DNA of 64,000 bases from an uncultured virus (IMG/VR IMGVR_UViG_3300030060_006470) (lineage: Duplodnaviria > Heunggongvirae > Uroviricota > Caudoviricetes), in IMG/VR virus record IMGVR_UViG_3300030060_006470; one strand, given 5' to 3'. The notes under the pieces were generated by a model. It made no database searches and was not told the origin of the DNA. It saw only the letters and a program-made list of their open reading frames with translations. The position numbers were made by a program, and so were the translations under genes. Positions 4,138 to 60,660 of this stretch are shown in pieces; positions within the stretch are counted from its first letter, which is position 1, and each line of letters opens with the position of its first letter.

Positions 4138-4476
4138 ATGAAAAAAGTAGAAGCCATCATCAGGAAATCTCAGTTTGATGATGTGAAGACTGCGCTCATG
4201 AACGTTAAGGTAACTTTCTTTAGTTACTGGGATGTAACTGGGCACGGTAATGAGAAAACAGGACACGTTTATAGAGGCGTGGAATTCAGTACCAACGATA
4301 TTCAGCGAAGGTACTTATCAATAGTTGTTTCAGACGAATTTCTGGACCGAACTGTAAATGCCATATTAGACTCTGCTTGCACGGACAAGGTGGGTGATGG
4401 TAAGATATTTGTTTCCGATGTTCAGGAAGCGTATAGAATAAGAACCCGTGAAAGGGGAAATCAAACCTTAAACTAA
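4138..4476 (+). CDS. glnB: Nitrogen regulatory protein P-II (GlnB/GlnK family)
   Basis: MKKVEAIIR N-terminus, T-loop YRG, GDGKIFV, RIRTRERG; 112 aa; directly upstream of amtB. Confidence 0.95.
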   Translation: MKKVEAIIRKSQFDDVKTALMNVKVTFFSYWDVTGHGNEKTGHVYRGVEFSTNDIQRRYLSIVVSDEFLDRTVNAILDSACTDKVGDGKIFVSDVQEAYRIRTRERGNQTLN

Positions 4477-4483
4477 GAAAGAT

Positions 4484-5713
4484 ATGGAAATGTTAACAAC
4501 AAACAACATATGGATGATGATTTGTACTGGACTAGTATTTTTCATGCACCTAGGATTTTCATTCTTAGAGATTGGATTGACACGACAAAAGAATACAATT
4601 AATATTCTTTTCAAAAACATCTTCATCATTTGTATGGGGCTATTGGTCTACTATATCGGTGGATTTAACCTCATGTACCCAGGATTCGAAGATGGTGATT
4701 TAGGTATCTTAAAGTTTGCAGGTTTCGGAATTGATGCCCCTGTAAATGGTATGACTGCCGAGTATGCCAGTGGTGGTTACACATGGTGGACAGATTTCCT
4801 TTTCCAAGGAATGTTTGCCGCAACAGCCGCAACTATTGTTTCTGGCGCTGTAGCTGAAAGAATCAAGCTAACAAGCTTCATGTTATTCAGTTTAATTTAT
4901 GTTGGATTAGTATATCCAATAGTAGGTTCCTGGAAATGGGGCGGTGGATTCTTAGATAATCTAGGGTTCTATGACTTTGCTGGAAGTACCTTAGTTCACT
5001 CCGTTGGTGGATGGGCAGCTTTAGTGGCAGTATGGTTATTGGGTGCCAGAATTGGTAAATTTAAACTTGGAAAAACTATACCAATTTTTGGGCATAATAT
5101 CCCTTTCGCTACTGCGGGAGTATTGATTTTATGGTTAGGATGGTTTGGATTTAACGGTGGTTCAGTGCTTAGCGCAGACCCAGCATTAACATCACTAACG
5201 TTAGTCACCACTTGCCTTGCAGCCGCTGCTGGAGGTATAGGTGCCGCAATTACATCTTTTATTAAAGACAAGGCATTTGATTTAACAATGTTCTTGAACG
5301 GAATACTAGGTGGACTAGTTGCCATTACAGCAGGTGCAGACCAAATGTCTCCAAACGAATCGGTAGTTATCGGAATCATTGGAGGTATCTTAGTTGTACT
5401 TGTAGTATCTATGTTAGATAAACTCAAATTAGACGACCCAGTTGGTGCAATTGCAGTACACTTAGGTTGTGGAATATGGGGGACTTTAGCTGTAGGTATC
5501 TTTGGTAACATGGCTGGTGCTGGTCAATTCATGACACAACTTACAGGTGTTTTAGTTATTGGTGCTTTTTGTTTAGTTAGTTCTTTCTTGATTTTATTTG
5601 CTATCAAGAAAACTATGGGACTTAGAGTATCAAAAGAAGAAGAACTTGAAGGTTTAGATAACGCTGAACATGGTATGTCCGCATACCCTGACTTTAGGCT
5701 TAATCAACATTAA
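4484..5713 (+). CDS. amtB: Ammonium transporter
   Basis: FQGMFAATAATIVSGAVAER, DFAGSTLVH, GWFGFNGGS, DDPVGAIAVH; many hydrophobic segments. Confidence 0.97.
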   Translation: MEMLTTNNIWMMICTGLVFFMHLGFSFLEIGLTRQKNTINILFKNIFIICMGLLVYYIGGFNLMYPGFEDGDLGILKFAGFGIDAPVNGMTAEYASGGYTWWTDFLFQGMFAATAATIVSGAVAERIKLTSFMLFSLIYVGLVYPIVGSWKWGGGFLDNLGFYDFAGSTLVHSVGGWAALVAVWLLGARIGKFKLGKTIPIFGHNIPFATAGVLILWLGWFGFNGGSVLSADPALTSLTLVTTCLAAAAGGIGAAITSFIKDKAFDLTMFLNGILGGLVAITAGADQMSPNESVVIGIIGGILVVLVVSMLDKLKLDDPVGAIAVHLGCGIWGTLAVGIFGNMAGAGQFMTQLTGVLVIGAFCLVSSFLILFAIKKTMGLRVSKEEELEGLDNAEHGMSAYPDFRLNQH

Positions 5714-5771
5714 TAACATTAATAACATAAGGGGGTTAATCACCCCCTTTAATTTACATAAAAATTTAAAA

Positions 5772-6776
5772 ATGAAAAAATTAATTACAATCTTACTTGT
5801 TGTACTAGGTACGACATTTATTTACGGTCAAGATAGCTTGGCTACAGAAAAATCAAAACTTTCTTTTGAAGGAAGCGCTGACATTTATTACAGAAGGAAT
5901 TTAAGTACTTCAACTACTGACGTTGCACCTGCAACATCATTTGCCAATTTAAATGGTTTCTCATTAGGTATGTTTAACCTGGTTAGCTCTTATGATACAA
6001 AGAACACAGGATTCGTTGCTGACTTAGTATTTGGACCTCGTGGAGAAGATGCAGTATTCTTGTCTTCAGGTAGTTCTAATATCATCAATCAGTTATACGC
6101 TTACTGGGATGTTAATGACAACCTTACATTTACTATGGGTAACTTTAATACCTTCTTAGGTTATGAAGTTATTTCACCTACAGGAAACTTTAACTATTCA
6201 ACTAGTTATATGTTTTCTTATGGACCATTTTCACACAGTGGACTAAAGGCTGACTTTAATTTATCTGAGAATCTTACAGGTATGTTAGCTGTTTTAAACG
6301 CAACAGACGCTACTGAATACAACCCAACTAACCTAAACACATTAGGTGCTCAGTTAGGTTATAAGGACACGTATCTTAACGCACTTTATGGTAAACAAGA
6401 TTCTAGTTCCGAAGCTACTTTCCAAGTAGATTTAACAGCTGGTTATGATTTATCAGATAAGTTTTATTTAGGTATAAACACAACTTACAATGAAACTGAT
6501 GGTTCTGGATTCTATGGAGCGGCATTATACCCTCAATATAACTTCGGTAAATTAACCACTGGTTTAAGAGGAGAATATTTTGCTGAAACAGGTTCTGGAG
6601 TTGGAGCAATTGGCCCAGATGCGAATGTTATAAACTTTACCGCAACTTTGGATTACGCTATAGAGAATCTAAATCTAAAGTTAGAGTACAGGTTTGACAA
6701 AGCAAGCGAAAAAGTTTTTGAACAAAAGGATAACTTAGCCAGCATTGTATTAGCGGCGGTTTATTCTTTTGACTAA
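5772..6776 (+). CDS. Outer-membrane beta-barrel porin (Amt-associated type)
   Basis: Signal peptide MKKLITILLVVLG; GNFNTFLGYEVISP and YMFSYGPFSHSG motifs; aromatic C-terminus; real start 5772 rather than 5670. Confidence 0.85.
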   Translation: MKKLITILLVVLGTTFIYGQDSLATEKSKLSFEGSADIYYRRNLSTSTTDVAPATSFANLNGFSLGMFNLVSSYDTKNTGFVADLVFGPRGEDAVFLSSGSSNIINQLYAYWDVNDNLTFTMGNFNTFLGYEVISPTGNFNYSTSYMFSYGPFSHSGLKADFNLSENLTGMLAVLNATDATEYNPTNLNTLGAQLGYKDTYLNALYGKQDSSSEATFQVDLTAGYDLSDKFYLGINTTYNETDGSGFYGAALYPQYNFGKLTTGLRGEYFAETGSGVGAIGPDANVINFTATLDYAIENLNLKLEYRFDKASEKVFEQKDNLASIVLAAVYSFD

Positions 6777-7554: not shown

Positions 7555-7679
7555 GAGAGAATAGCTCAGTTGGTAGAGCAACCCTATCCTACTTAGTAGA
7601 AAATTGGATAGGTTGAGGATAGCGGTATACAGCTAAAATTGTAAAAAGGTTGCAGGTTCGAGTCCTGTTTTTCTCACCA
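7555..7679 (+). ncRNA. tRNA-like RNA with an expanded, branched anticodon region
   Basis: Acceptor GAGAGAA/TTTTCTC-A-CCA, D-arm GCTCAGTTGGTAGAGC, T-arm GCAGGTTCGAGTCCTGT; ~70-nt middle with no 7-nt anticodon loop. Confidence 0.75.
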
Positions 7680-7906: not shown

Positions 7907-8100
7907 AAACTCTCCAAGCTAATGGATGAGCAAGTGAATACGCTTACAGTGCTAGGCTGTCTCAGGAGGAAACAACTCAGGTATCACAACACTCCAAGAA
8001 GTGTTAGCTTTGAAGTTAGATACTTTACAGGACAAGCTCTGCATTCCTTAACCATAGGAAGTATTTATGCGAGTATTCCACTTGGGGACTTGGAGAGTTT
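7907..8100 (+). ncRNA. Unknown structured RNA family, copy 2
   Basis: Same closing stem and conserved blocks as 6901-7114; 3' half nearly identical to copy 3. Confidence 0.75.
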
Positions 8101-8104
8101 TTAT

Positions 8105-8204
8105 GAGAGAATAAAGAGAAACAATACTGGACAGTTGGTAGCTCTAACGATTAGATAGCCATCAGATGGAAATCTTAATGTAGGTTCGATTCCTGCTTCT
8201 CTCA
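8105..8204 (+). ncRNA. tRNA-like RNA with degenerate D and anticodon regions
   Basis: Acceptor GAGAGAA/TTCTCTC-A, T-arm GTAGGTTCGATTCCTGC. Confidence 0.65.
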
Positions 8205-11193: not shown

Positions 11194-12492
11194 ATGATAA
11201 ACTTTAAAGATTTAAAAAAAATATACAGACTGTTTAAAGATGTTAATATAACAGACATTATTTCCTTTGTGGAAAAGAATCCTAAATTATTAAAAAGTTT
11301 GGGTAAGGAAGAAAAGACAGAAGCCAATTATGATTCGGACTTCTATAACATATTCAATAACTTAACCAAAGAAGATAATGATTTAAGATTAAAGGTTAGG
11401 GCGTTTATGGAAAAAGATGTCAAACCTATTATCAACTACTATTGGTACATAGATGAATTCCCACATCAATTAATACCAAAGCTTAGAAAATTAGATATAT
11501 GTGGTTTATCCTACAAGGGTTATGGTTGCCAAAACAAATCTAGCCTATCAGAAGGCGTTGTAGCCGCTGAACTATCAAGAGTGGACCCTTCACTATCTAC
11601 ATTCATAGGTGTTCACTCAGGACTGGCTATGGGTTCTATTTATCTATGTGGTTCTGAAGAACAAAAACAGTATTGGTTACCAAAAATGAGAAGAATGGAG
11701 ACTATAGGTGCATTTGGACTAACCGAACCATTAGTTGGTTCTGGTGCTGCTGGAGGTCTAACCACCACTTGTGAAAGAAAGGGTGATAAATGGGTTTTAA
11801 ATGGCCAAAAGAAATGGATAGGCAACTCTACCTTTTCCGATATTACTATCATATGGGCTAGAGATGTTAGTGATAACCAGGTAAAGGGGTTTATTGTTGA
11901 AAAAAATAATGTAGGATTCTCAGTGGAGAAGATAGAGGGTAAGATATCCTTAAAAATTGTACAAAATGGACTTATCACATTAGATAATTGTATAGTAGAA
12001 GAAAAGAATAGACTACAAAATGCAAATTCATTTAAAGATACTAGTAGGGTGTTAAAAATGACCAGAGCAGGTGTGGCTTGGCAATCAGTAGGATTGAGCA
12101 TGGGAGCTTATGAAGCCACCGTTAAGTATTGTAACAGTAGAAAGCAATTCGGTAAAACAATAGATTCATTCCAACTAACACAATCTAATTTAGCTAACAT
12201 GTTAGGTGACTTAACAGCAATGCAGAATATGGTCTACCAATTATCTATATTACAAGACATTGGTCAAATGAAAGATGAACAAGCAAGCCTAGCTAAAGTG
12301 TGGATTACCAAAGCAATGAGAAGACTAGTGTCTACTGGTAGAGAATTGTTTGGTGGTAATGGTATTCTATTAGAATATGATATCGCTAAGTATATGGCTG
12401 ATGCTGAAGCATTATATAGTTACGAAGGTACGGCTCAAATTAATGAATTAATTGTGGGTAGAAGCATTACAGGTAAACAAGCATTTATATAA
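11194..12492 (+). CDS. Acyl-CoA dehydrogenase (glutaryl-CoA dehydrogenase-like)
   Basis: GAFGLTEPLVGS, LNGQKKWIGN, RKQFGK, GGNGILLEY, YSYEGT. Confidence 0.93.
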   Translation: MINFKDLKKIYRLFKDVNITDIISFVEKNPKLLKSLGKEEKTEANYDSDFYNIFNNLTKEDNDLRLKVRAFMEKDVKPIINYYWYIDEFPHQLIPKLRKLDICGLSYKGYGCQNKSSLSEGVVAAELSRVDPSLSTFIGVHSGLAMGSIYLCGSEEQKQYWLPKMRRMETIGAFGLTEPLVGSGAAGGLTTTCERKGDKWVLNGQKKWIGNSTFSDITIIWARDVSDNQVKGFIVEKNNVGFSVEKIEGKISLKIVQNGLITLDNCIVEEKNRLQNANSFKDTSRVLKMTRAGVAWQSVGLSMGAYEATVKYCNSRKQFGKTIDSFQLTQSNLANMLGDLTAMQNMVYQLSILQDIGQMKDEQASLAKVWITKAMRRLVSTGRELFGGNGILLEYDIAKYMADAEALYSYEGTAQINELIVGRSITGKQAFI

Positions 12493-12540: not shown

Positions 12541-12738
12541 ATGAAAAAGATTTTAATTATTACACCAATTTACATTATACTAATTTCTATTTTTGGATTA
12601 GGATTATTCCATATAACTCAAAGTTGGTATACAAAATTAGTATGTCCTGTATGTGTAAGTTTACTTACATCGATTTGGCTTTCCCTATCAATGATAGAGT
12701 ATGAAGATTATAAAGAACTTAAAAGGGAAAGAAGATGA
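12541..12738 (+). CDS. Small membrane protein
   Basis: Two hydrophobic segments; promoter motif upstream. Confidence 0.6.
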   Translation: MKKILIITPIYIILISIFGLGLFHITQSWYTKLVCPVCVSLLTSIWLSLSMIEYEDYKELKRERR

Positions 12739-12977
12739 GTAATTACAAAAAAGGTGATATAACACAAAACGGATGGGAAGTCCTTGATGTTGTGATGAAA
12801 ACAATATACAAAATGAGAAAACGTGTAACCATTAACGATGATGCACTCAAACATAATGAACAGTATATTGGTAAGAAAGGATGGTGGTATTTTAATGGTA
12901 GATTTAATTGGGTAGAATTAGATGATTACCCAGGTATACAATTTAGATTCAGAGAATTAGAATTAAACCAAAAATAA
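12735..12977 (+). CDS. Hypothetical protein (MSKE array)
   Basis: Bounded by junction motifs. Confidence 0.7.
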   Translation: MSNYKKGDITQNGWEVLDVVMKTIYKMRKRVTINDDALKHNEQYIGKKGWWYFNGRFNWVELDDYPGIQFRFRELELNQK

Positions 12978-12978
12978 G

Positions 12979-13236
12979 ATGAGTAAAGAAGAAAAATTAA
13001 ATGTTGGGGATAAGGTTAGTTTTGTATCTAAAAATAAAAGAAGTGGATTTCCATATAGTGATAAATCTATTGTCTATATAGTTGAAGAAATTGAAAAATG
13101 CGGTACCTTAACACTTAGACAAGATTACTCAGATAAAAGAAAAAAAGGATTTAACACTACAGAACCTGGCGTAATTATACCATCAAAGTTTTTGGATGAA
13201 TTTGAAATAAGAAAACAAAAAGAAGATGAGAGATAA
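12979..13236 (+). CDS. Hypothetical protein (MSKE array)
   Basis: MSKEE start; LNVGDKV suggests a KOW/SH3-like fold. Confidence 0.7.
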   Translation: MSKEEKLNVGDKVSFVSKNKRSGFPYSDKSIVYIVEEIEKCGTLTLRQDYSDKRKKGFNTTEPGVIIPSKFLDEFEIRKQKEDER

Positions 13237-13435
13237 GATAGAAGAACTATTAGATATGAGTGACCCTATGACAAAATCACATTATATGATATGGGATAGT
13301 GGTGATTGTTCAGAAGTAGGACTTTGTGAAATCTTACTTGACCAACTAATAAGAAAACATAAAAAAGATAATGGTGAGTATTACGATACAGACTATGACC
13401 AAATAAAATTAAGATACCAAAACAAAGATGAGTAA
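13226..13435 (+). CDS. Hypothetical protein (MSKE array)
   Basis: Ends QNKDE, read from the motif. Confidence 0.7.
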   Translation: MRDKIEELLDMSDPMTKSHYMIWDSGDCSEVGLCEILLDQLIRKHKKDNGEYYDTDYDQIKLRYQNKDE

Positions 13436-13700
13436 AGAAACAAAGATAATCAAAGACCCGTTTATGGGAGAAATTGAACTGGAGAAGGTAGGCCAAACTT
13501 CATTACATGCAGTCGGTGAAAGTAGAATGGATACTATATACAGTGATAAGAAAGGTAACTTTTGGATTGAAACAACTACTACATTTGGTAGTGACGGAAT
13601 GTTTGAACCAGAACCGATGTTATTCATCAGAAAAGGACTAGTTGATTTAATAACAGAAATAAACCAATTTAAATTTTTTACCTTTAACAAAGATGAGTAA
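13428..13700 (+). CDS. Hypothetical protein (MSKE array)
   Basis: MSKE...NKDE. Confidence 0.7.
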   Translation: MSKETKIIKDPFMGEIELEKVGQTSLHAVGESRMDTIYSDKKGNFWIETTTTFGSDGMFEPEPMLFIRKGLVDLITEINQFKFFTFNKDE

Positions 13701-13890
13701 AGAAGAAGATAAGGAATTAGTCAGTAGGTTACTAAAAGCATCTAACGAAATTCACAAGAAAAGATTAGGTCAAGCAAATTATATACATCTAACAGCAAAA
13801 TTCATACAACAACGAGCAGACGAAGAAGGAGTTACATTTGATGAAATGGTAAAGATAATTGAAGAAGAACTTAAACCAAAACAAAGATGA
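13693..13890 (+). CDS. Hypothetical protein (MSKE array)
   Basis: MSKE...KPKQR. Confidence 0.7.
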   Translation: MSKEEDKELVSRLLKASNEIHKKRLGQANYIHLTAKFIQQRADEEGVTFDEMVKIIEEELKPKQR

Positions 13891-14183
13891 GTAAACAATA
13901 TAATGTAAAGTATGAAGTAGGGCAAGATGTCTATGTATTAAGAGATAAAAAGATAACTAAAAATAGGATAGTCAAGATTAGAGTTACCGAACAACAACCT
14001 TATACTAAGGGTAATCCAGATGGAACTTTTACCGACATGTCGGGTATTGAAATAGATTATCTTATAGAAACAAAAAGAGATTTCATACATCCACATACAA
14101 AACGTACCCAAAGTTCATACGATTGGTACAATGAAGAAGATGTCTTTACTAATAAGGATGAATTGATTGCACAAATTGTATAA
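13887..14183 (+). CDS. Hypothetical protein (MSKE array)
   Basis: MSKQ start; stop is the first TAA of the motif. Confidence 0.7.
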   Translation: MSKQYNVKYEVGQDVYVLRDKKITKNRIVKIRVTEQQPYTKGNPDGTFTDMSGIEIDYLIETKRDFIHPHTKRTQSSYDWYNEEDVFTNKDELIAQIV

Positions 14184-14195
14184 ACCAAAAAGAAG

Positions 14196-14399
14196 ATGAG
14201 TAAAAAAGTAACACATATGACAACTGAGGAAATTAATTCAGAAAGAATTGAATTAGAACCTATGGTATTGTTAATGAAAGAAACCAATGTTGTAGAACAC
14301 GATGGTATAAACTATTTCGACATATCTAAACGATATCATGAATTGTGTAAAGAATCGGTTGTAAGAGAGCTATTAAACCAAAACAAAGAAGATGAGTAA
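14196..14399 (+). CDS. Hypothetical protein (MSKE array)
   Basis: Ends LNQNKEDE. Confidence 0.7.
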   Translation: MSKKVTHMTTEEINSERIELEPMVLLMKETNVVEHDGINYFDISKRYHELCKESVVRELLNQNKEDE

Positions 14400-14727
14400 A
14401 GAAGAAATACTTTCTGAACTAAAACAAATACTTGATGATGCCAATGGTTACGATATTGACCCATACATCATTGAGCAATTAATAGAAAAAAACAAAGTGA
14501 GTAAAGAATACACCATAGAACACTACGAAAGGTTTAACAACGAAAAGGGTGAAATACTATCCTTAAATAAAAAGGATAATAACTGCGAAGATATAGAAAA
14601 AGGTGATACACTTATTCTAGATGTTGGTAGGTATAGAGCAGTAGAGGTAGAACACTTCAAGGCATTCAATGGTGGTAAGGGACAAAACGTATTAGTACTA
14701 ATCAAATTAATAACAATAAATGAGTAA
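14392..14727 (+). CDS. Hypothetical protein (MSKE array), apparent fusion of two cassettes
   Basis: Internal AACAAAGTGAGTAAAGAA (KVSKE) at about 14491-14508. Confidence 0.7.
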   Translation: MSKEEILSELKQILDDANGYDIDPYIIEQLIEKNKVSKEYTIEHYERFNNEKGEILSLNKKDNNCEDIEKGDTLILDVGRYRAVEVEHFKAFNGGKGQNVLVLIKLITINE

Positions 14728-14950
14728 AGAATTAAGAAAGAATTATAGAATACCTACTATTGATGAATTTGTTGATGAATTTGAATTTGAAGTATATTCA
14801 GAGGGATATTTTGAAGATAGCGTAGAATCCTTTTGTGGATGGTATAAGTATAAATTCGGTTGTGATAATTGGAGAGATTTAGATGAAATACAAAGAGAGA
14901 TAGATTTAGGAAATATACAATGTTATATTATTAAAAAGAAAAGAAGATGA
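14720..14950 (+). CDS. Hypothetical protein (MSKE array)
   Basis: MSKE start. Confidence 0.7.
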   Translation: MSKELRKNYRIPTIDEFVDEFEFEVYSEGYFEDSVESFCGWYKYKFGCDNWRDLDEIQREIDLGNIQCYIIKKKRR

Positions 14951-14956
14951 GTAAAT

Positions 14957-15052
14957 GGTAGAGTTTGACTTGACAGACATTGGATAAAGGGGTGGCGCGA
15001 TTCAAGGTGGAAAAAACCTAAACCCGAAACAGTTCGAATCTGTTATCTACCA
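14957..15052 (+). ncRNA. tRNA-like RNA occupying one cassette slot of the MSKE array
   Basis: GGTAGA/TCTACC-A acceptor, T-arm AACAGTTCGAATCTGTT; junction motifs on both sides. Confidence 0.6.
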
Positions 15053-15078
15053 AATACCATCTAAAAACCAAAACAAAG

Positions 15079-15300
15079 ATGAGTAAAAGAGAACCAAAAT
15101 TAGACCCATATTTAGACCACCTAGTAACAAAAGATGGTAGGAAATATAAAAAAGTTTATGTGATGTATGTCGATGGTGACGAACTTCTATGCGATTGTTG
15201 TAATGAAAAGAAACCAAGAGCGGTAATTAGATTACTAAGTGGTGATATAACAGGATTATGTGAAGATTGTATAAGAGATATATTAACAGTATTTGATTAA
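15079..15300 (+). CDS. Zn-finger-like hypothetical protein (MSKE array)
   Basis: CDCC...CEDC. Confidence 0.7.
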   Translation: MSKREPKLDPYLDHLVTKDGRKYKKVYVMYVDGDELLCDCCNEKKPRAVIRLLSGDITGLCEDCIRDILTVFD

Positions 15301-15599
15301 ACCAAAACAAAGATGAGTAAAGAAAGATTACTTAAATTAGTATCCGATGAAAAAACAGATACAATTAATCGAAATAAACAGAGAATAAAATGGAGGTGGT
15401 TTATACGATTAAAAAATAAGATTAAATTATTTTACTTAACATTATTAGACAAAAATGAGTAAAGAAACATATACCGAAGAACAAATAATTACCATCATCA
15501 AAGCGTTTCATCTCGATTCAGTAGAAGGTAATTATTCAAAAGAATTGTTAATGTTTTGTAATAATTGGATAAACAATAATATTATTAATAACACAGAAG

Positions 15600-15809
15600 A
15601 TGAGTGAAGAAGATTCAATAGAGGAGTATAAAAAGGCGCAAGACGTTATACGTAGTTGCATTAATGATTTGGATAGGAATATTAAACTTGCTAGAAAAGA
15701 GGGACCATCTGAACAATTAGATGATATGTTGTCTACAAGAAAAAGTTTCCTTAAAGAATGGGAATCTTATGAAGAATTTATTAAAGATTTAAATAGATAC
15801 GATGGATAA
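15600..15809 (+). CDS. Hypothetical protein (MSKE array)
   Basis: MSEE start. Confidence 0.65.
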   Translation: MSEEDSIEEYKKAQDVIRSCINDLDRNIKLARKEGPSEQLDDMLSTRKSFLKEWESYEEFIKDLNRYDG

Positions 15810-16122
15810 AAAAGAAATGAAGAAACTGATGTCTTCCATGTTAATTACCAAAAGTGTAGTTACATGCCACGCAGAAATAAATCCTGATATGGCTAAACAT
15901 TATGGTGTTGCAACTTATGAAGGAATAATAAAAAATGAATTATTTTATCAGTTTGCAAATGAATGTAAAAAATCTATTAGTATGAAAAAGAAAGATTATA
16001 CTTATGAGCTAAAAGCTATGGTACTACCTTTTGATTATATTAAAGATTTTATTGAAGCTTATGTAATGATGATGCCTAGAGAAAGATTAGATGAACTTTT
16101 AAAAGATAGACATGATGGATAA
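15802..16122 (+). CDS. Hypothetical protein (MSKE array, MDKKE variant)
   Basis: GATGGATAAAAAAGAA junction. Confidence 0.7.
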   Translation: MDKKEMKKLMSSMLITKSVVTCHAEINPDMAKHYGVATYEGIIKNELFYQFANECKKSISMKKKDYTYELKAMVLPFDYIKDFIEAYVMMMPRERLDELLKDRHDG

Positions 16123-16372
16123 AAAAGAATTAATAGAGAAGTTAAAAGATATTAAAATAGGTGAATACTTTGAGTGCCCAGTCAACTTACCACCAGCTGA
16201 TGTAAATAAGATATTAGAAGATATCCTAGGCTCATATGTTGACATATCTGAAGATTGGAATGGTTGTGATTTAGATTGGTCATTAATGGATGATTTAATT
16301 ATTGATGATATGGTGTTTAAGGTGTGGGGTTCTGCATTTCAAGGTTGGCTAATATTTAAACGTGAAAAATAA
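16115..16372 (+). CDS. Hypothetical protein (MSKE array, MDKKE variant)
   Basis: GATGGATAAAAAAGAA junction. Confidence 0.7.
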   Translation: MDKKELIEKLKDIKIGEYFECPVNLPPADVNKILEDILGSYVDISEDWNGCDLDWSLMDDLIIDDMVFKVWGSAFQGWLIFKREK

Positions 16373-16379
16373 AACAAAG

Positions 16380-16562
16380 ATGAGTAAAAAAAGATACATA
16401 GGGTTAATTCATGATGAGAGAAATGATGACTTTACAATAGGGTATAACATTTCAACTAACATAAAGAAAATGTTAAAATGGAAAAAAGAAATGTCAAATT
16501 GTGTAGATGTTGAAGATTGTAAAGTATTTGAGATTAAAGAAATAAACCAAGAAGATGAGTAA
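16380..16562 (+). CDS. Hypothetical protein (MSKE array)
   Basis: MSKK...INQEDE. Confidence 0.7.
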   Translation: MSKKRYIGLIHDERNDDFTIGYNISTNIKKMLKWKKEMSNCVDVEDCKVFEIKEINQEDE

Positions 16563-16791
16563 AGGAAAACTCAGAAATATAAATGTAAGGGGGGTAGAAT
16601 GGAAATATATCATAGAGCATGATATGGATATAAAAGCAGAGGTGAGAATATATAATCCCAGCACTAAACAAATTATAAAGAGAGTAGAATTTAGTGAACT
16701 TGGATTCGGTGAATATGAAATTGAACATGGTGGTTGTAATATAACACCTAAAATGATAAGAGAATATATTCAAGATAATTTGCATATATAA
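16555..16791 (+). CDS. Hypothetical protein (MSKE array)
   Basis: MSKG start. Confidence 0.7.
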   Translation: MSKGKLRNINVRGVEWKYIIEHDMDIKAEVRIYNPSTKQIIKRVEFSELGFGEYEIEHGGCNITPKMIREYIQDNLHI

Positions 16792-16836
16792 AAAACATTT
16801 GCTATATTTACATTATGAAAGATAAAAGAAAAAAAG

Positions 16837-17283
16837 ATGAGTAAAGAAGAACAATTAAAAAAACTAAAACTAGCATGTTCTAAAATGAAAATTGATTTTG
16901 GGTATTTTATATGGAAATCCTATCTAACTGTTGAATTAGGTAAAGGATATAAACCAACAGTTGAGCAACTAGATGACTTATATTGTGGACTTGTTTCTGG
17001 AGTATTATGTAATCTTGGTAGTGGAAAGAAACCTGAATTTATGGAAGGTATTGGACCTACAAAAGAAGAAAGGTACGCAATCGAAGGTTATCAAAAGTTA
17101 AGAGACAATTTAATTTATATGGGTGGTATAGAATATCCATATGAAGAATGGATAGAACAAAATTCGGAATCTGAAGAATGGGTGGACCTAGCATTAAAAG
17201 CATCGAAACTAGATAGAGAATTCGATAAAAACCCAGAAGAGTGGTGTATACAACTAAGAAATAATTGTAAATCAAGAAGATGA
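16837..17283 (+). CDS. Hypothetical protein (MSKE array)
   Basis: 148 aa; internal promoter just upstream. Confidence 0.75.
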   Translation: MSKEEQLKKLKLACSKMKIDFGYFIWKSYLTVELGKGYKPTVEQLDDLYCGLVSGVLCNLGSGKKPEFMEGIGPTKEERYAIEGYQKLRDNLIYMGGIEYPYEEWIEQNSESEEWVDLALKASKLDREFDKNPEEWCIQLRNNCKSRR

Positions 17284-17601
17284 GTAAAGAATATACATTA
17301 GAAGAAAAAGTTGATTACTTAGAAAACCTATTAGGGTACAGACCAATTGAAACAGAATTACACACCAAGGAAGGTTTGGGCAGTTTTGAATGGGAAGTTA
17401 ATCAAGATTTTAGTCACTTATTTAAACCAAAACAAAGATGAGTAAAGAAATAAAACTAGCAGAACATTATTGTACAAGTGAATATGATATACTTGAAGAT
17501 AAAGGTAATGGTTATATTGTAGTAAAACTAAACGAACCCTTTAAGCACCATCCCACTGAAGAACCTAGTAATGTGTTTCTAACTCAAAAACCAAAACAAA
17601 G

Positions 17602-17790
17602 ATGAGTAAAGAAAGAGACTATAACAAAATAGATGCTTTGAAATACCTAGTGGAAACTGGTCCTAAGTACATAAACGAATGGACTGAAGCGGGTATGTAT
17701 CATATACTAAGAAAAGTAATCCTAGAAGAAACCGAGAGATATACTAAAGAAATGTTAGATGCACTATTAGTATGCGCATCAAATAATTAA
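17602..17790 (+). CDS. Hypothetical protein (MSKE array)
   Basis: MSKE start. Confidence 0.7.
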   Translation: MSKERDYNKIDALKYLVETGPKYINEWTEAGMYHILRKVILEETERYTKEMLDALLVCASNN

Positions 17791-17803
17791 ACGGAAAAGA
17801 AAG

Positions 17804-18079
17804 ATGGATAAAGAAGAACCATTAGACGTAGCAAATATACTAAGTAATATATTAGAAGAAGAATTAAAAAAGGTAAGAGAAGAATCATTTAAACCACTAA
17901 TGGAACTATTTGATAAGTATAATATTTCTCCTGAGAATAGACTTAAAATATTAGTAGAATCTCATATAGAAACAATTGAACACTTTAAGAAGAAGGGTCA
18001 AATAATGGAAGATACTTACCTGATAAGTGTTACCATGAAAAATATTGAGAACTTTAAAAAACAAAGTAAAGATGAGTAA
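17804..18079 (+). CDS. Hypothetical protein (MSKE array)
   Basis: MDKEE...QSKDE. Confidence 0.7.
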   Translation: MDKEEPLDVANILSNILEEELKKVREESFKPLMELFDKYNISPENRLKILVESHIETIEHFKKKGQIMEDTYLISVTMKNIENFKKQSKDE

Positions 18080-18213
18080 AGAAGAAAAAATAAAAATAAC
18101 ACTACCTGACGGAAATGAGATATCGTGGGAAGACTTTGTAAAGTCTACTCCAAAAGATGATATAATTGATGAAATTAATAAAGATATATTGGATAAATTA
18201 AAAAGGAAAGAAG

Positions 18214-19044
18214 ATGAGTAAAGAAGAAAATAAGAAAACTATAACATTAACTCTTGATGAATTGAAAGACGATTCCTTTAAAACTATAGATAATGTTAAA
18301 TATCTTTTACCTACTGATGAAACTGGCTCCGCAACTGAAAAGGATAAGTGGTGGTGGTACAAATCATTAAAGATTGACCAACCGACAATATATAAAAAGA
18401 TATTTCTGGACAATAACATCACACCATATGATTGTGAGTCTATCGTATATGAAGAATTTAATATAGATGAAATTGATTATCCAGACTACCTATCATTTAT
18501 AGGTTCTGACCAAAACGAACCATATGTATTTGTTGATGTAAAACTTAATGACGGTAGAAGATTTGTAGTGGAACGTATTAAATACCTATTTGGCTATATT
18601 AAGATAAAACAAATCCACAAGTTTTCATTTAAGGGTGAACCACACCTACTATATGAAGTTATCGATGAAAGAATAATGGAAGACCTTGACCCAGAATACT
18701 TCGATAGTGAGTACGACTTTTTCGCTGAATTATGTGGTTTTAAAAGAGACTACTGGCCTGATGAATTGGAAGAACTTGATATATATAGTGTCATGTATAA
18801 GAAAACCATGGAATTAAATATTCTAGGGACTATGGATGTATATCTAATCGTCAATGAAAATGGGTCTGTTGACTGCAATTTGGAGATATATCCTTCAGAT
18901 GACGATGTAGTTGATATGTTTGAAATAACAGATAAATTATTTGAACAAGAAGAAGATATACAAGTTATGCTTTCAATACTTAATGTAGCTAAGATTGTTA
19001 GCGATGATGATGCAGACTTTATATTAAATGAATTAATAGATTAA
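18214..19044 (+). CDS. Acidic hypothetical protein (MSKE array)
   Basis: 276 aa, D/E-rich. Confidence 0.8.
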   Translation: MSKEENKKTITLTLDELKDDSFKTIDNVKYLLPTDETGSATEKDKWWWYKSLKIDQPTIYKKIFLDNNITPYDCESIVYEEFNIDEIDYPDYLSFIGSDQNEPYVFVDVKLNDGRRFVVERIKYLFGYIKIKQIHKFSFKGEPHLLYEVIDERIMEDLDPEYFDSEYDFFAELCGFKRDYWPDELEELDIYSVMYKKTMELNILGTMDVYLIVNENGSVDCNLEIYPSDDDVVDMFEITDKLFEQEEDIQVMLSILNVAKIVSDDDADFILNELID

Positions 19045-19055
19045 AACAAAATAAA

Positions 19056-19622
19056 ATGGAAGAAACAATTAATTTCGAATTTAAAGTAAAAGAATTTAAA
19101 ACTAAATCAGGTGAAACCTTTAAACCCGATGTAGATAATCTTATTGCAATATTTAAAGGCTTTATACAGGATGAAGAAACAAGACTAGAAAACCTGGTTA
19201 AACATAAAGACGAGGAAGATGAACTTGGAGAAACACATGAGTTAACATACGAAGAAGCTAAAGACCCAAACTTCATATACCAAGAGAATGTATCCTACAA
19301 TACATCTGATGAAAAAACAAGTAGCTGGATGCATTATAGAACGCTAGAAAAAATAGTCCCAGAAGTAATCGAAACACTATACGCTGACACATCCCCAGAT
19401 AATTGTATTACCTACGATGTATGGATATACGAAACAATAAAATTCACTATGGAAATAAATGAATGTGAAAGAAGCTATTGTATTGATACCGAAGAATACT
19501 TTAAGGAAGAAGTACAAACATCTCAACTATATAGCATGGTCGTGGAACTAATGAAATTTGAATATGAAAAAACATCACATGTAGTATACTATACAATATA
19601 TGATGAAGATTACGAAGACTAA
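19056..19622 (+). CDS. Acidic hypothetical protein
   Basis: 188 aa, D/E-rich. Confidence 0.8.
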   Translation: MEETINFEFKVKEFKTKSGETFKPDVDNLIAIFKGFIQDEETRLENLVKHKDEEDELGETHELTYEEAKDPNFIYQENVSYNTSDEKTSSWMHYRTLEKIVPEVIETLYADTSPDNCITYDVWIYETIKFTMEINECERSYCIDTEEYFKEEVQTSQLYSMVVELMKFEYEKTSHVVYYTIYDEDYED

Positions 19623-19705
19623 AAAACAAAACAAATAATACCAATGAATAATTTGCATATGTCAAAAAAATTTATTATATTTACATTATTAAAAATAAAA
19701 AAAAG

Positions 19706-19987
19706 ATGAGTAAAGAAACGCCAAATTTATTTAGAACCGATGAATTGGTTCAATCAGAAAAAGCAATCGACTTTGCATTTAAATCATTGAAGGCTGAATG
19801 GAATCATGATGATGAGTTCCTAATGAAAGTAGCAAAGCAATTTGAATGTGCCTCAGAGGGTAACATCTTCCTAGACCAACTGGATGCTGCGTGTGATGAT
19901 ATACACGAAGGTTGGGTAAGATACTGTGAGTACAGAGATATTGAACACGAAATAGATGATAACCCTTTTATTGACGAAGATGAGTAA
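19706..19987 (+). CDS. Hypothetical protein (MSKE array)
   Basis: MSKE start; internal promoter upstream. Confidence 0.7.
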   Translation: MSKETPNLFRTDELVQSEKAIDFAFKSLKAEWNHDDEFLMKVAKQFECASEGNIFLDQLDAACDDIHEGWVRYCEYRDIEHEIDDNPFIDEDE

Positions 19988-20148
19988 AGAAGATATGAAA
20001 TATCCAAACTGGAATGGAATTTACGGATTCTTAGGTAATAGTATTTATGGAAATGGATTTGTCTATGCTGCTGAAACTGCAGAAAAGATAAAACTAAAAG
20101 GACAGGAAGTTCTTAAAGAATTATTAGAACAGAGATTAAACCAAGAAG

Positions 20149-20457
20149 ATGAGTAAAGAAAAAGAAATAGGGGAAAGATTAATAAACGTTATGACCAAAT
20201 TAGAAGATTTGGGAGTATTCTATGGAAAGAATTATAGCGGTGAATATCATGAAAAATATCCACATTCATCTTATTGGTTTAACATGGATATGGACCAACA
20301 CAGAGGTGGTTTTGAAACCCATATTATGTATGATGGGGATGAATATGAAACAATATCAGTAGGTGGTGGAGATAACGCAATAGAACAACTATTAAGTGTT
20401 CTTGAGAAATCATATAATAAAATTGTAGAATACTTAAACCAAAACAAAGATGAGTAA
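20149..20457 (+). CDS. Hypothetical protein (MSKE array)
   Basis: MSKE...LNQNKDE. Confidence 0.7.
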   Translation: MSKEKEIGERLINVMTKLEDLGVFYGKNYSGEYHEKYPHSSYWFNMDMDQHRGGFETHIMYDGDEYETISVGGGDNAIEQLLSVLEKSYNKIVEYLNQNKDE

Positions 20458-20734
20458 AGAAAATCCATTTTATAAAAAGTTATCCTATAATATAACTAGA
20501 GAAGGGTCTAAATATCCTTTTAGAAATGATTATACTTATAAGTTTTCAACTGGTCAGTTTTTAGAAAAAATAGATGATTTATCCAGCATGTCATCATATA
20601 CATACAACGAAATAAAACAAATAGCAATAGATTCATTAGTAGAAGAATTTAGAATATCATTAAACAGTGTAGTATTTGGAGACCCTGCTGGAAAAGATTA
20701 TATTAAATCAATAAACCAAAACAAAGATGAGTAA
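20450..20734 (+). CDS. Hypothetical protein (MSKE array)
   Basis: MSKE...INQNKDE. Confidence 0.7.
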   Translation: MSKENPFYKKLSYNITREGSKYPFRNDYTYKFSTGQFLEKIDDLSSMSSYTYNEIKQIAIDSLVEEFRISLNSVVFGDPAGKDYIKSINQNKDE

Positions 20735-21014
20735 AGAAGAAATTAATATAAATATGGAAGAAGTATACGTGTTTCCTCATGTGAGATATGTAGCATTACA
20801 CGGCAACCCTAAACCAACATATATCTATAAAAAGTACGTAGGCAACCACGAATCATTAACTAATGGAAAGGTATATGAATTCCATCAAGCCTTATTTTCA
20901 CCAAATAGAGAAACGACTAGAAAAAAGGTTTGGATAACCAAAACAGATATTGGACCATATGTTAGGTATGAAGACACAATAAACCAATGGGTAGATACAA
21001 GTAAACCAAAATAA
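20727..21014 (+). CDS. Hypothetical protein (MSKE array)
   Basis: MSKE...KPK. Confidence 0.7.
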   Translation: MSKEEININMEEVYVFPHVRYVALHGNPKPTYIYKKYVGNHESLTNGKVYEFHQALFSPNRETTRKKVWITKTDIGPYVRYEDTINQWVDTSKPK

Positions 21015-21016
21015 AC

Positions 21017-21271
21017 ATGAGTAAAGAAGAAAAAAAAGAATTGCCATTGATAAAACATCTACTTGATAAGATAGGTGATAGTGATATAGTACCAACAAGA
21101 AAGGTAACTACTAACATACTTTTTGCACCATCAATTGCTGGTGAAAGTAAAATAAAAAGAATGATAACTCACAACAACAAAATAGTTGGATGCTTATATG
21201 AAGATGATAATATAATTTGGTTCGATATGCCAGAAGCTGAAGAAGCTAAAAAATTATTAGAAGATGAGTAA
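21017..21271 (+). CDS. Hypothetical protein (MSKE array)
   Basis: MSKE...EDE. Confidence 0.7.
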   Translation: MSKEEKKELPLIKHLLDKIGDSDIVPTRKVTTNILFAPSIAGESKIKRMITHNNKIVGCLYEDDNIIWFDMPEAEEAKKLLEDE

Positions 21272-21479
21272 AGAAATAATATACGAAGTTGGAGATGTAG
21301 TTACAACACCAAGAGGTGAAGGTAAGATAGTCTATAAAGATGTCAACCCAGCGAACTATGAAGCAATTAAAGCACTAGATAGTATTGGTGATTGGTTTTA
21401 CATGGTAGAGCATAATGAAGATAACTGGTCTGGACCATATAAGTATTATCAATTAAACCAAAACAAAGAAGATGAGTAA
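21264..21479 (+). CDS. Hypothetical protein (MSKE array)
   Basis: MSKE...LNQNKEDE. Confidence 0.7.
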   Translation: MSKEIIYEVGDVVTTPRGEGKIVYKDVNPANYEAIKALDSIGDWFYMVEHNEDNWSGPYKYYQLNQNKEDE

Positions 21480-21637
21480 AGAAGAATTATACCAAAAGGT
21501 ATTACTAAAGTGGGGATTCAATTGGTTGCCAGCAACACCGCCAGGAACTTGTTTACATTCATTTGATGAATTCACTAGAAAGATAGAATCGGATAATGAA
21601 TTCTATAATAAAGTTGTTAAAGAAATAAACCAAGAAG

Positions 21638-21940
21638 ATGAGTAAAGAAAGATTTTATTTAAAGTGGGGATACAATGAACCGCGACACCCAAAAGAAACA
21701 CATGGAGAATTTACATGGGAAACTGGTATTGGAACAGATTTATTCAAAGGATACTTTCTAGTGTTTGATGAAGATACAACATTAAACCAATGGAGAGCAA
21801 AAGAAATTGAAATATGGGAAAACTTAATGAAAGACTTCAAACAAGATAATAAGGTTCAATCATTAGCTGCTGTAATTAAACCAAACGAAGAAAAAATAAA
21901 AAAGATTGAGTCAGATAATAATTTTATTAAATGGATTTAA
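21638..21940 (+). CDS. Hypothetical protein (MSKE array)
   Basis: MSKE start; stop is the motif TAA. Confidence 0.7.
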   Translation: MSKERFYLKWGYNEPRHPKETHGEFTWETGIGTDLFKGYFLVFDEDTTLNQWRAKEIEIWENLMKDFKQDNKVQSLAAVIKPNEEKIKKIESDNNFIKWI

Positions 21941-21952
21941 ACCAAAACAAAG

Positions 21953-22138
21953 ATGAGTAAAGAAGAAAAATTAAACATTAACATCACATTGACAGATGAA
22001 TCAGGGTTTATTGTAAAAGGAAAATCTAAAGTAACATTAGAAGCGTACAAAGATATCAAGAAGTTTCACAATCTATCTATATTAGACGAAACATTAGAAA
22101 TGATGTTAGAAAACTTAAACCAAAAAGAAGATGAGTAA
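21953..22138 (+). CDS. Hypothetical protein (MSKE array)
   Basis: MSKE...LNQKEDE. Confidence 0.7.
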   Translation: MSKEEKLNINITLTDESGFIVKGKSKVTLEAYKDIKKFHNLSILDETLEMMLENLNQKEDE

Positions 22139-22343
22139 AGAACAGCCAGTAGATTTAGGACAATGGCTTAAACACTTATCATTTTGGCATAATAAGTCAG
22201 ATGATGAATGTATTGAACTAGCAACAAATGAATATGGTGTAAATGCAGAAGAGGCTCTTAAAAATATATTTGAAAGAGATTTCTGTACAAGTATTAATAA
22301 TAATGTTGTAGAGAAATTATTAAACCAAAACAAAGATGAGTAA
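22131..22343 (+). CDS. Hypothetical protein (MSKE array)
   Basis: MSKE...LNQNKDE. Confidence 0.7.
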   Translation: MSKEQPVDLGQWLKHLSFWHNKSDDECIELATNEYGVNAEEALKNIFERDFCTSINNNVVEKLLNQNKDE

Positions 22344-22575
22344 AGAATTTAAACCAAAAAGAAAATTAAAGGAAAGATATTCATTAGAAGGTATTGCTAA
22401 AAGCAAAGGCATAACAGTTGATGAATTAAAGAACCAAATAAAAACTAACCAAGAAGAAAGGAAAAAGATATTAGATAAGTACATTAAAAAGGGTATGACG
22501 ACTGAACAAGCAAATAGAATGACTATGTTAGAACTATACATACCTGGATTTACTGGACCGACATTTAAAGATTAA
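22336..22575 (+). CDS. Hypothetical protein (MSKE array)
   Basis: MSKE start. Confidence 0.7.
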   Translation: MSKEFKPKRKLKERYSLEGIAKSKGITVDELKNQIKTNQEERKKILDKYIKKGMTTEQANRMTMLELYIPGFTGPTFKD

Positions 22576-22866
22576 ACCCAAACAAAGATGACTAGAAGAG
22601 AAGTAGAGGAAAAGATAAGTAAAGAAAAAAATTTTAACGTAGGATTAGGATTTGGAATAGCAATAGGAATAATCCTGACAATATGTTTGGAAATTGCATT
22701 TTTGCAACTCTACCGAATTATTAATTTGACTTAAAAACAAAAAAGAAGATGAGTAAAGAAGAAATTGATTTAGGAGAAATGATTAATGTGTGGATTAAAC
22801 ATCATGGAAGTTTAGATTTAGACACAGATGAACAAACAATTATTGACTTTTATAACAAAAAAAAAG

Positions 22867-23040
22867 ATGAGTAAAGAAGATAAGAAACCAAAATTAATTA
22901 TACCTTCAAAAGAAGATATAGAAAGAAATGAACAAATGCGGAAGGATATAGAATGGCTAAAAGAAAAAATTATTAAAGCATCTATGATTCCTAGAAAGTA
23001 TTTCGATAGTAAAGATAAAACAGATAATACCAATGAATAA
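22867..23040 (+). CDS. Hypothetical protein (last MSKE cassette)
   Basis: MSKED start. Confidence 0.65.
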   Translation: MSKEDKKPKLIIPSKEDIERNEQMRKDIEWLKEKIIKASMIPRKYFDSKDKTDNTNE

Positions 23041-49504: not shown

Positions 49505-49746
49505 AAACTCTCCAAGCTAATGGATGAGCAAGTGAAAAACAAGGTCGGCTCTTTGAGCTAAAGTCACAACACTACCATTTTTAGAGTAATAGGACAATAA
49601 GGATGAATAAATCGGCAATCCTCCCCTATTATAATGGTTCCAAGAGTGTTAGCTTTGAAGTTAGATACTTTACAGGACAAGCTCTGCATTCCTTAACCAT
49701 AGGAAGTATTTATGCGAGTATTCCACTTGGAGGACTTGGAGAGTTT
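49505..49746 (+). ncRNA. Unknown structured RNA family, copy 3
   Basis: Same closing stem and blocks as 6901/7907; ~70-nt insertion between AACACT and AGTGTT. Confidence 0.75.
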
Positions 49747-49750
49747 TTAT

Positions 49751-49908
49751 GAGAGAATGGCGAAATTGGTAAACGCAGGTGTGGTCAAAGCCTATATGGA
49801 TGGGTGTGTGAATAATGAATAGCACATTCTTAGCTCATGGTAAGAACTACCTAACTAATAACAGCTAAACGTAATTTAGTATTGCAGGTTCGAGTCCTGT
49901 TTCTCTCA
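49751..49908 (+). ncRNA. tRNA-like RNA with a very large branched insertion
   Basis: Acceptor GAGAGAA/TTCTCTC-A, D-arm GGCGAAATTGGTAAACGC, T-arm GCAGGTTCGAGTCCTGT; 158 nt. Confidence 0.7.
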
Positions 49909-50007: not shown

Positions 50008-50298
50008 ATGGATATAGATTATTTTAGAAAAGAATTGTTTATTGGGAATATATTAAAGGATATGACCATAAAACAAATTGATGATGCAATTACAGAAGGG
50101 TTACAGTTATTAGCTTCGGCACAATATATATTAAAAAAGGGTTTATATGCGTCTGAAGGTATTAAAAAGGAAGTTATTCTTAGAGATATAAAATGTCTTG
50201 AAATTAACTTAAATACATTAACTAACGCTTTTGTTAAAAAAGAAAATTTAAAGGTATTAATTCATAATGATAGACCTATGTTTTTTCATATGAATTAA
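50008..50298 (+). CDS. Hypothetical protein
   Basis: Promoter plus ORF. Confidence 0.7.
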   Translation: MDIDYFRKELFIGNILKDMTIKQIDDAITEGLQLLASAQYILKKGLYASEGIKKEVILRDIKCLEINLNTLTNAFVKKENLKVLIHNDRPMFFHMN

Positions 50299-50305
50299 AA
50301 GTTAT

Positions 50306-50383
50306 TACGGTATTGGTGTAGGGACGGTCTCATGAGCCGTTTGGGAGATATCCCCCTGAGTGGTTCGAATCCACTAACCGTGA
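50306..50383 (+). tRNA. Atypical tRNA with CAT anticodon (Met/Ile2), no D-stem, long variable arm
   Basis: Anticodon arm ACGGT-CTCATGA-GCCGT, T-arm AGTGGTTCGAATCCACT, acceptor TACGGT/ACCGTG. Confidence 0.6.
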
Positions 50384-60237: not shown

Positions 60238-60660
60238 ATGAAGTCACTTATAAAGAAGTTATTGAGGGAAGAATTGGTAAATAAATTAATCAGGTTAGAG
60301 ATTGACGAGGTTCATAAACCTGGTGAATATACTCACGAAAATGTAAAGTTAGAAGACTTATATGTTTTAGAAAAAAATATGAATGAAGCTTGGAACATTA
60401 AGGGTGGTTCTAAAACTAAAGACCCCTTAGAGGTATTTCAAATGTTAGATAATAGTAAATTTTTACTTGACGGTCATCATAGGGTTTGTGATTATATAAT
60501 TAAAAGTGGTATTATAGATAAAGAAGAAATTCTTAAATTAGAGATATATTCTAATATATTACAAACACCTATTAAAAATTCGATAGAAGCTTTAGGTGCA
60601 AAACTTTTTAATGGTTACATACCCTTTATTGAATGGTTAAAAAAAATTAACATATATTAA
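60238..60660 (+). CDS. ParB/Srx-like domain protein with MKxLIKKLLRE leader
   Basis: FLLDGHHRV motif. Confidence 0.65.
   Translation: MKSLIKKLLREELVNKLIRLEIDEVHKPGEYTHENVKLEDLYVLEKNMNEAWNIKGGSKTKDPLEVFQMLDNSKFLLDGHHRVCDYIIKSGIIDKEEILKLEIYSNILQTPIKNSIEALGAKLFNGYIPFIEWLKKINIY

Follow-up and report, generated by a model that had tools for sequence, protein, structure and literature searches.

The window, meaning the whole stretch of 64,000 nucleotides that was analysed, has a G+C content of 30% and many small orphan ORFs. It also encodes P-II, an ammonium transporter, a beta-barrel porin and an acyl-CoA dehydrogenase. The first three make up a host-like nitrogen module at 4138-6776, and the acyl-CoA dehydrogenase gene lies at 11194-12492, both in a phage-like context. 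Public sequencing runs containing the region are mostly marine. We read the window as part of a large marine Bacteroidota phage, with the host deduced from promoter and initiation motifs; the promoter consensus used for this is one that we take to be that of Bacteroidota.

From 12.7 to 23 kb, the ORFs form an array of mini-genes linked by a single motif, in which an A-rich leader is followed by ATGAGTAAA (Table 1). An initial sequence-only reading had pointed to one slot of this array, where the ORF stops after a few codons and the spacer resembles a tRNA. These descriptive claims hold. The frame from ATG 14947 reads MSKW-stop, the next junction ATG is at 15079, and both ATGs belong to the array junction motif. 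GGTAGA at 14957-14962 is complementary to TCTACC at 15046-15051, which delimits 95 nt, or 96 with the discriminator A15052. The canonical T-arm, AACAG-TTCGAAT-CTGTT, is present, and the seven bases from it to the end of the acceptor strand give the spacing found in tRNAs.

Table 1. Features of the slot and of the array around it (window coordinates).
Feature	Position	Strand	Remarks
Junction-delimited mini-gene array holding the slot	12735..23040	+	36 ATGAGT[AG]A starts between 12700 and 23000
Protein cassette upstream of the slot, 76 aa	14720..14950	+	No PHROGs or Pfam family
Upstream junction motif (A-rich leader + ATGAGTAAA)	14931..14955	+	Ends the preceding ORF and gives the cassette its start codon
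Outer closing stem, 5' arm	14945..14953	+	Includes the junction start codon
Four-codon ORF MSKW-stop	14947..14961	+	Stop inside the acceptor-like strand; homologs MS[KR]W, MRKW or equivalent
Overlapping frame, 10 codons in the window	14955..14987	+	41-43 codons in many homologs; neutral variation, judged not to be a protein gene
tRNA-like core	14956..15052	+	U-1, G1 at 14957, discriminator A at 15052; 14 distinct sequences in 29 loci
Acceptor-like 5' strand	14957..14963	+	Pair 6 covaries A-U/G-C; position 7 opposite A (mismatch)
D-arm-like region, nearly invariant	14963..14989	+	Candidate hairpin 14963-14978; TTGGA 14980-14984; pairs with T-arm sequence in the alternative rod fold
Middle arm	14990..15025	+	Invariant GGGT/ACCC stem closes a 28-nt variable region, replacing anticodon and variable arms
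T-arm, 5 bp, TTCRAAT loop	15028..15044	+	From folding and family alignment
Acceptor-like 3' strand and discriminator A	15045..15052	+	No encoded CCA
Outer closing stem, 3' arm	15055..15062	+	Complements the cassette's own start-codon region; one base short in the window
Downstream junction motif	15062..15087	+	Next cassette starts at 15079
Protein cassette downstream of the slot, 73 aa	15079..15300	+	No PHROGs or Pfam family

The tRNA-like features are well above chance. In 200 first-order Markov resamples a strict T-arm pattern averages 0.09 matches, and the window itself has 6. Adding the requirement for a perfect 6-nt acceptor partner leaves 3 matches (mean of the resamples 0.005), and the combination appeared in 1 of the 200 resampled windows. 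In terms of anatomy, the acceptor has six pairs, a G7-A66 mismatch and A73, with a 7/5 geometry. The mismatch at pair 7:66 adds to the first description, as does the lack of an encoded CCA after A73 in all 29 loci of the family described below. The D-arm region offers two candidate stems, neither of which covaries, and its TTGGA is invariant. A conserved 5-bp anticodon stem with a 7-nt loop was not found in the 14 distinct cores, where the single candidate hairpin is broken in several variants; this middle region is the most variable part of the core. Finally, the closing stem extends beyond the acceptor and overlaps the upstream junction motif.

Other repeat-based modules are present in the window. 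A promoter-like unit (TTTG, about 20 nt, then TATATTTACA or TATCTTTA; general form TTTG...TATATTTA) is present in about two dozen copies at 25190-59400, and also at 16779 and 19652. These units head single genes and are a second, promoter-bounded module system. At 60238-62983, four adjacent ORFs share a near-identical N-terminus (MK.LIKKLLRE.L), which suggests another series of cassettes started by a repeat.

Several further tRNA-like elements lie outside the array, all on the plus strand. A tRNA-like gene at 7555-7679 has canonical acceptor, D- and T-arms and a CCA, with an insert of about 66 nt forming two hairpins in place of the anticodon arm; it matches the Rfam tRNA model at 43.8 bits and is not called by ARAGORN. 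Two tRNA-framed elements, at 8105-8204 and 49751-49908, have a common GAGAGAA/TTCTCTC acceptor and different middles. Both are preceded by a 121-bp leader (7993-8112 and 49639-49758 are 98% identical), and no homolog of either was present among the loci retrieved. The sole ARAGORN call, a tRNA-Met at 50298-50382, is without a normal D-arm and consists of acceptor, two hairpins and T-arm; it is probably another atypical tRNA-like RNA.

Homologs of the slot element were found in uncultured viral and metagenomic contigs. A pattern in which the T-loop is joined to the downstream junction gave one locus in IMG/VR (L049), on a contig of 110 kb where its neighbours are different; over 163 bases, both motifs included, the identity is 85%. 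A metagenome scan returned 32 stretches, made up of 27 homologs and 5 ordinary tRNAs. The family thus has 29 loci (the window, L049 and the 27 from metagenomes), several of which are re-assemblies of the same phage, and 14 distinct cores of 97-98 nt that are 88-99% identical. Acceptor ends and T-loop belonged to the search pattern, which by itself accounts for part of their invariance. With a covariance model, members score 119-125 bits and everything else below 30. The best matches outside the family are class II tRNAs, among which a tRNA-Tyr with a long D-loop leads at 29 bits. Because the tRNA loci scored were chosen for a similar acceptor, this ranking does no more than suggest the isotype of the ancestor. 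L049 and L053, contigs of the same phage, are identical through the junction behind the element and then carry different cassettes, either through a strain-level swap or through mis-assembly at the repeat.

An earlier IMG/VR pattern gave 48 loci, which are ordinary tRNAs (mostly Ser) with no family member among them. In cultured phage records neither the element (E up to 1) nor 2.1 kb of the array was matched. The family model found no member in 132 genomes from the order of a Flavobacteriales MAG, a weak test with no positive control and 31 candidates scored per listed genome. Searches with the neighbouring proteins gave 3 weak partial matches, which were uninformative. As for the junction, its exact 24-base form occurs in 95 IMG/VR stretches. 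The family model was run on 80 of these loci and found no member, so the tRNA-like RNA is a minority cassette. A T-arm scan on the array strand of all 95 returned only ordinary-looking tRNA-type genes, none of them before a junction. L012, L019 and L028 (at position ~1500) carry tRNA-Ser-like phage genes with a 3-nt linker and a 17-18-nt D-loop, missed by ARAGORN, and the start of this D-loop resembles the 5' region of the element. A literature search found no description of the element or of the junction. The short motifs are absent from four readable supplementary files of Fremin et al. 2023, whose remaining supplements may hold alignments.

A tRNA caller and RNA folding had both been proposed as checks. 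ARAGORN, run on the window, does not call the slot element, and at a low threshold it returns noise only. Rfam leaves the element unmatched at E up to 1 in the window and up to 5 in eight homolog loci. The folding check came out divided. Taken by itself, the 97-nt core has unremarkable stability (z -1.52, with 14 of 200 shuffles as stable), and its minimum free energy (MFE) structure in the window copy is a rod that pairs T-arm bases with the 5' region rather than a T-arm. The 118-nt stem-closed form is stable (z -3.10, 0 of 200 shuffles), with boundaries picked after the stem had been seen. Folded as RNA, stem-closed forms reach z -3.1, -3.9 and -4.1; folded as DNA they reach only -0.9 to -1.6, neither strand being above shuffles.

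The rod is the MFE structure for most variants. Imposing the T-arm raises the energy by 0-2 kcal/mol in 13 cores and by 4 kcal/mol in the core with a broken T-stem pair (L105, L109). In the alignment the rod is 98.4% paired, against 99.3% for the tRNA-like fold. As modelled, the cloverleaf-like and rod folds would fit the inner part equally well.

Variation within the family clusters in the middle arm. At acceptor pair 6 the 14 distinct cores have 7 A-U, 6 G-C and 1 mismatch; this is the sole covarying pair, possibly through one event. The T-stem is fully paired in 13 of the 14 cores, with one pair broken in the L105 and L109 variant, and the T-loop varies at the purine-57 position only. There are 10 variable positions among 28 in the inner, middle part and 6 among the 47 free outer positions (Fisher p 0.039), and a single one in the 22 nt of the D-like region. 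Two diverged pairs of loci share the next cassette, and in these the core is identical at 92/97 and 87/97 positions (95% and 90%), compared with 107/147 and 120/165 for the protein cassette (73% in both); a third such pair is nearly identical and uninformative. High identity alone may reflect recent spread, since contigs often share protein cassettes of the pool at 90-99% identity as well.

The trailer complementary to the start codon is present in all 28 complete loci, as 15 perfect 7-mers, 2 with G-U and 11 one base short. A similar complementary arm was found at only 1 of 71 other junctions. The opposing base is changed in 4 of the 11 loci that are one base short and in 0 of the other 17, which is suggestive, with only three contexts involved.

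The overlapping frame from ATG 14955 behaves differently. It is open for 41-43 codons in 18 of the 29 loci (one of them cut by a contig end), ending at the junction; in 9, including the window, it stops at codon 11, and in 2 it is frameshifted. Its alleles comprise 5 synonymous, 13 missense and 1 nonsense change, as expected under neutrality (26% vs 28%). Gene callers list the frame in 6 clusters, and its database matches are the same element, the sole diverged match (P0006) switching frame mid-way. Judged from these alignments, selection is acting on the RNA rather than on a peptide.

The presence of the slot in relatives had also been named as a check, and here the result is positive. The slot occurs at 29 loci with changing neighbours, and its neighbour cassettes also occur without the element in other places, the window included. 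The core begins nine bases after a junction-type ATG in 29 of 29 loci, with a degenerate leader in L080 and L093, and a junction follows it in all 28 loci that reach that far. Upstream, 28 usable flanks fall into 20 clusters; downstream, 22 fall into 14, and homology breaks at the motif. Contigs from three other runs match the window in single-cassette stretches, and these alignments end at junctions. Contigs carrying the element also differ in the genes around the array, among them DNA polymerase, thymidylate synthase and phosphoesterase. Joints between junctions in contigs of run X6 were not counted as rearrangements, since their sides of only 20-35 nt are the motif itself, and for the same reason such joints cannot show circles. 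Contigs of run X1 break at 14976-14978. From sequence comparison, the element is one conserved, repeat-bounded non-coding family that lies always at the junction motif and changes neighbours there.

Non-coding slots of two more kinds lie between these motifs in other contigs. The first is an 80-nt cassette at L188:2922-3001 (+) and L181:3024-3103 (-), stem-closed with two inner hairpins (z -3.7 and -3.6) and with two compensatory changes in its closing stem; a loop-to-linker pseudoknot is possible, and the L181 copy has no Rfam match. The other, a unit of 60-80 nt, occurs in five contigs (L125:3016-3096, two copies in L187, and L181, L163 and L136). It ends just before the junction, is A+T-rich and has a repeated GCTAC and a TATAGT hexamer, and is possibly a promoter cassette.

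The first reading had proposed that the junction mobilises non-coding cargo too, and this is borne out, with the slot moving as a unit and two further kinds of non-coding slot between the same motifs. Since the same RNA recurs between the same repeats with different neighbours, the repeats move not only protein genes but also genes for RNA. Mobile non-coding slots are hard to explain by translational coupling alone, and cargo with such exact bounds argues for DNA exchange at the motif. The further claim, that recombination is favoured over translational coupling, is supported by this shuffling only in its first half. The motif has A at -3, -6, -12 and -13 in 34, 31, 27 and 28 of the 36 array starts, and these are reported as positive initiation determinants in Flavobacterium johnsoniae (PMC6847099). 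The junction is therefore also a strong initiation region; nothing here speaks against a role in translation, and both roles can hold together. Likewise, the view that the element lies between the motifs rather than overlapping them is right for the tRNA-like core, whereas the upstream motif contributes its ATG part to the outer stem.

The simplest model would be a shared optimal stop/start sequence that doubles as recombination homology, comparable to the shuffling of PeSL cassettes. These are short repeats in variable regions of T4-type phages, at which recombination reshuffles modules (Arbiol et al. 2010, PMC2839356). Like them, the slot unit changes neighbours exactly at a shared repeat. 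PeSL are described there as promoter-terminator units, whereas the repeat here is a stop/start junction with a Bacteroidota-type initiation region and a cargo that includes structured RNAs; a promoter and terminator stem-loop consensus was not found at the junctions. As for the recombination chemistry, the candidates are homology-driven exchange at the repeat of about 25 bp or a site-specific enzyme. No integrase was seen in the ORFs examined, and no recombinase was identified.

Among known RNAs, the closest in kind are those of phage T4, species 1 (rnaC, 139 nt) and species 2 (rnaD, 119 nt; AF158101), small stable phage RNAs described as having no known function (PMC9697503). Like the slot RNA, rnaC has a 3' T-arm and acceptor-like ends, and it has long arms replacing the D- and anticodon arms. 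Homology does not go further than a generic likeness to tRNAs: under the family model rnaC reaches 17.5 bits, the level of ordinary tRNAs, against 119-125 for members, and rnaD has no match among those listed. The T4 RNAs lie in a tRNA cluster, whereas the slot RNA stands alone among protein mini-genes, is bounded by repeats and would seal its own start codon. In the loci examined its neighbours are protein mini-genes, Rfam finding one tRNA about 1.9 kb off in one of eight. In this comparison the slot RNA is analogous to T4 species 1, not homologous.

Class II phage tRNAs (Tyr, Ser; RF00005) share with the slot RNA the acceptor ends, a T-arm at canonical distance and A73, and Tyr- or Ser-like phage tRNAs with long D-loops resemble its 5' half. 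Unlike these tRNAs, the slot RNA is without an anticodon stem-loop, has the G7-A66 mismatch and an extra outer stem, and is uncalled. Allo-tRNAs and irregular tRNA-like genes are described as non-canonical, some of them mobile and translationally inactive (Mukai et al. 2017, via PMC7609411). As described, allo-tRNAs have an 8/4 or 9/3 geometry with an anticodon arm, whereas the slot RNA is 7/5, has no such arm and is found in phages. Membership among selenocysteine tRNAs or allo-tRNAs (8/4, 9/3 or 8/5) was rejected on these two features, geometry and missing anticodon arm. A tmRNA was also rejected, with U3-A70 rather than G3-U70 and no ARAGORN or Rfam match. YrlA, a bacterial Y RNA, has a tRNA-like module atop a long 5'-3' stem. 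That module is permuted, while the slot RNA is in canonical order with the T-arm last; YrlA was rejected, Rfam giving no match at E up to 1 or 5, and a Ro60 gene was not recognised among the neighbours scanned. Integron cassettes are promoterless single-gene units in tandem whose order changes. Unlike attC, the junction is not palindromic and includes a start codon; attC was rejected on the rarity of the complementary arm at other junctions (1 of 71) and on DNA folding not above shuffles. The slot RNA fails membership of the tRNA, tmRNA, YrlA, allo-tRNA and attC families.

Taken as a whole, the unit is very probably a mobile structured RNA of tRNA origin. Our preferred reading, held at about even odds, is that it is also a class II tRNA-derived mimic, cut from the array transcript by host tRNA processing and acting in trans. 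The slot is then a mobile cassette of 130-135 bp, whose RNA product would keep acceptor stem and T-arm with the anticodon arm lost. A promoter or terminator consensus of its own was not found at the slot, a sigma-70 scan giving 51 sites against 69.6 expected, none at the element. For this reason we infer that the element is co-transcribed within the polycistronic RNA of the array. Its 3' arm would pair with its own start-codon region, blocking ribosomes and presenting the fold as a pre-tRNA, in mimicry of a leader-trailer helix. Host RNase P, together with 3' trimming and CCA addition, would free a stable RNA of about 96 nt, as in T4 species 1. RNase P is reported to cleave model substrates made of acceptor plus T-arm (PMC11143913); the G7-A66 mismatch, a U-1:A73 pair and the missing CCA are not ideal for processing.

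The freed RNA may act in trans as a decoy or competitor for host factors that read the acceptor and T-arm, such as anti-phage tRNA nucleases or sensors, or processing and charging enzymes; a specific target is pure inference. A role in trans is favoured over one in cis because phage accessory regions are reported to be rich in counter-defence genes (bioRxiv 2023.04.06.535777). The cassette would spread by recombination within the junction repeat of about 25 bp, which doubles as a Bacteroidota-type initiation region. The fullest form of this proposal is doubtful: an integrase-free pool, built on the ~25-bp stop/start repeat and shared by aquatic Bacteroidota phages, in which RNA genes and microproteins travel together, RNA cassettes close on themselves (this one over its own start codon) and the tRNA mimic is a counter-defence decoy against tRNA-directed immunity.

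The main alternative, to which we give some weight, is a portable module acting in cis to process or stabilise. Here the element would direct RNase P and RNase Z to cut the array transcript (tRNA punctuation), uncouple downstream translation, or switch between rod and tRNA-like fold when opened by a ribosome. Its position always inside arrays, the missing promoter and terminator consensus, the outer stem that sequesters the start codon, the two near-isoenergetic folds and the lack of an encoded CCA all suit such a role. The D-like region, on the other hand, is nearly invariant, beyond what a minihelix substrate needs. Neighbours are also unrelated from locus to locus, so that no particular gene would be regulated.

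An improbable reading is that of a decayed tRNA, of Tyr or Ser type, captured once between junctions and carried along as a functionless hitch-hiker, its identity between loci reflecting recent spread. The lost anticodon arm, the G7-A66 mismatch, the little covariation and a core z of only -1.5 would fit decay, as would the other degenerate tRNA-like genes in the same phage and the many protein cassettes that are equally conserved. Against it stand the compensated acceptor pair and the clustering of variation in the middle arm (p 0.039). The outer stem is specific to the cassette (1 of 71 controls) and is something that no tRNA gene would bring. In both diverged pairs the core is more identical than the linked protein cassette, and its length is constant at 97-98 nt.

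It is very improbable that the RNA is a non-canonical, translationally active molecule of the allo-tRNA kind, charged through acceptor identity elements and decoding with the middle-arm loop. Its acceptor ends do match those of phage tRNA-Ser and tRNA-Tyr, and allo-tRNAs with odd cloverleaves are reported to serve translation (PMC7609411); the slot RNA, however, has no conserved 5-bp/7-nt hairpin, has a geometry of 7/5 instead of 8/4 or 9/3, and leaves the Rfam tRNA models unmatched.

We give scarcely more credit than to the peptide reading below to a DNA element, either an attC-like recombination site with a single-strand hairpin or a tRNA-derived attachment site. The terminal inverted repeat does overlap the junction, and the 3' halves of tRNAs are common att sites. 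However, DNA folding is not above shuffles, cassettes that lack such an arm move too, the two tRNA ends are both there and covary, and none of the 8 matches in a GTDB pattern scan is homologous. Least probable, and largely refuted, is a microprotein of 41-43 residues from ATG 14955 with incidental RNA structure: the frame is open in 18 of 29 loci, ends at the junction as other cassettes do and is listed by gene callers, yet it is truncated or frameshifted in 11 of 29, varies neutrally, switches frame in P0006 and has no Pfam or PHROGs family.

Phage RNAs of tRNA-like form without an anticodon go back to T4 species 1 and 2 and still have no function assigned. The slot RNA is a new family of this known but unexplained kind, in an unusual mobile setting. 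Being short, nearly invariant, portable and not tied to any neighbour, it can be made and assayed in isolation, which makes the old question testable. In uncultured Bacteroidota phages, repeat-bounded accessory arrays carry RNA genes, which are overlooked by tRNA and Rfam scans and wrongly annotated by gene callers as hypothetical proteins.
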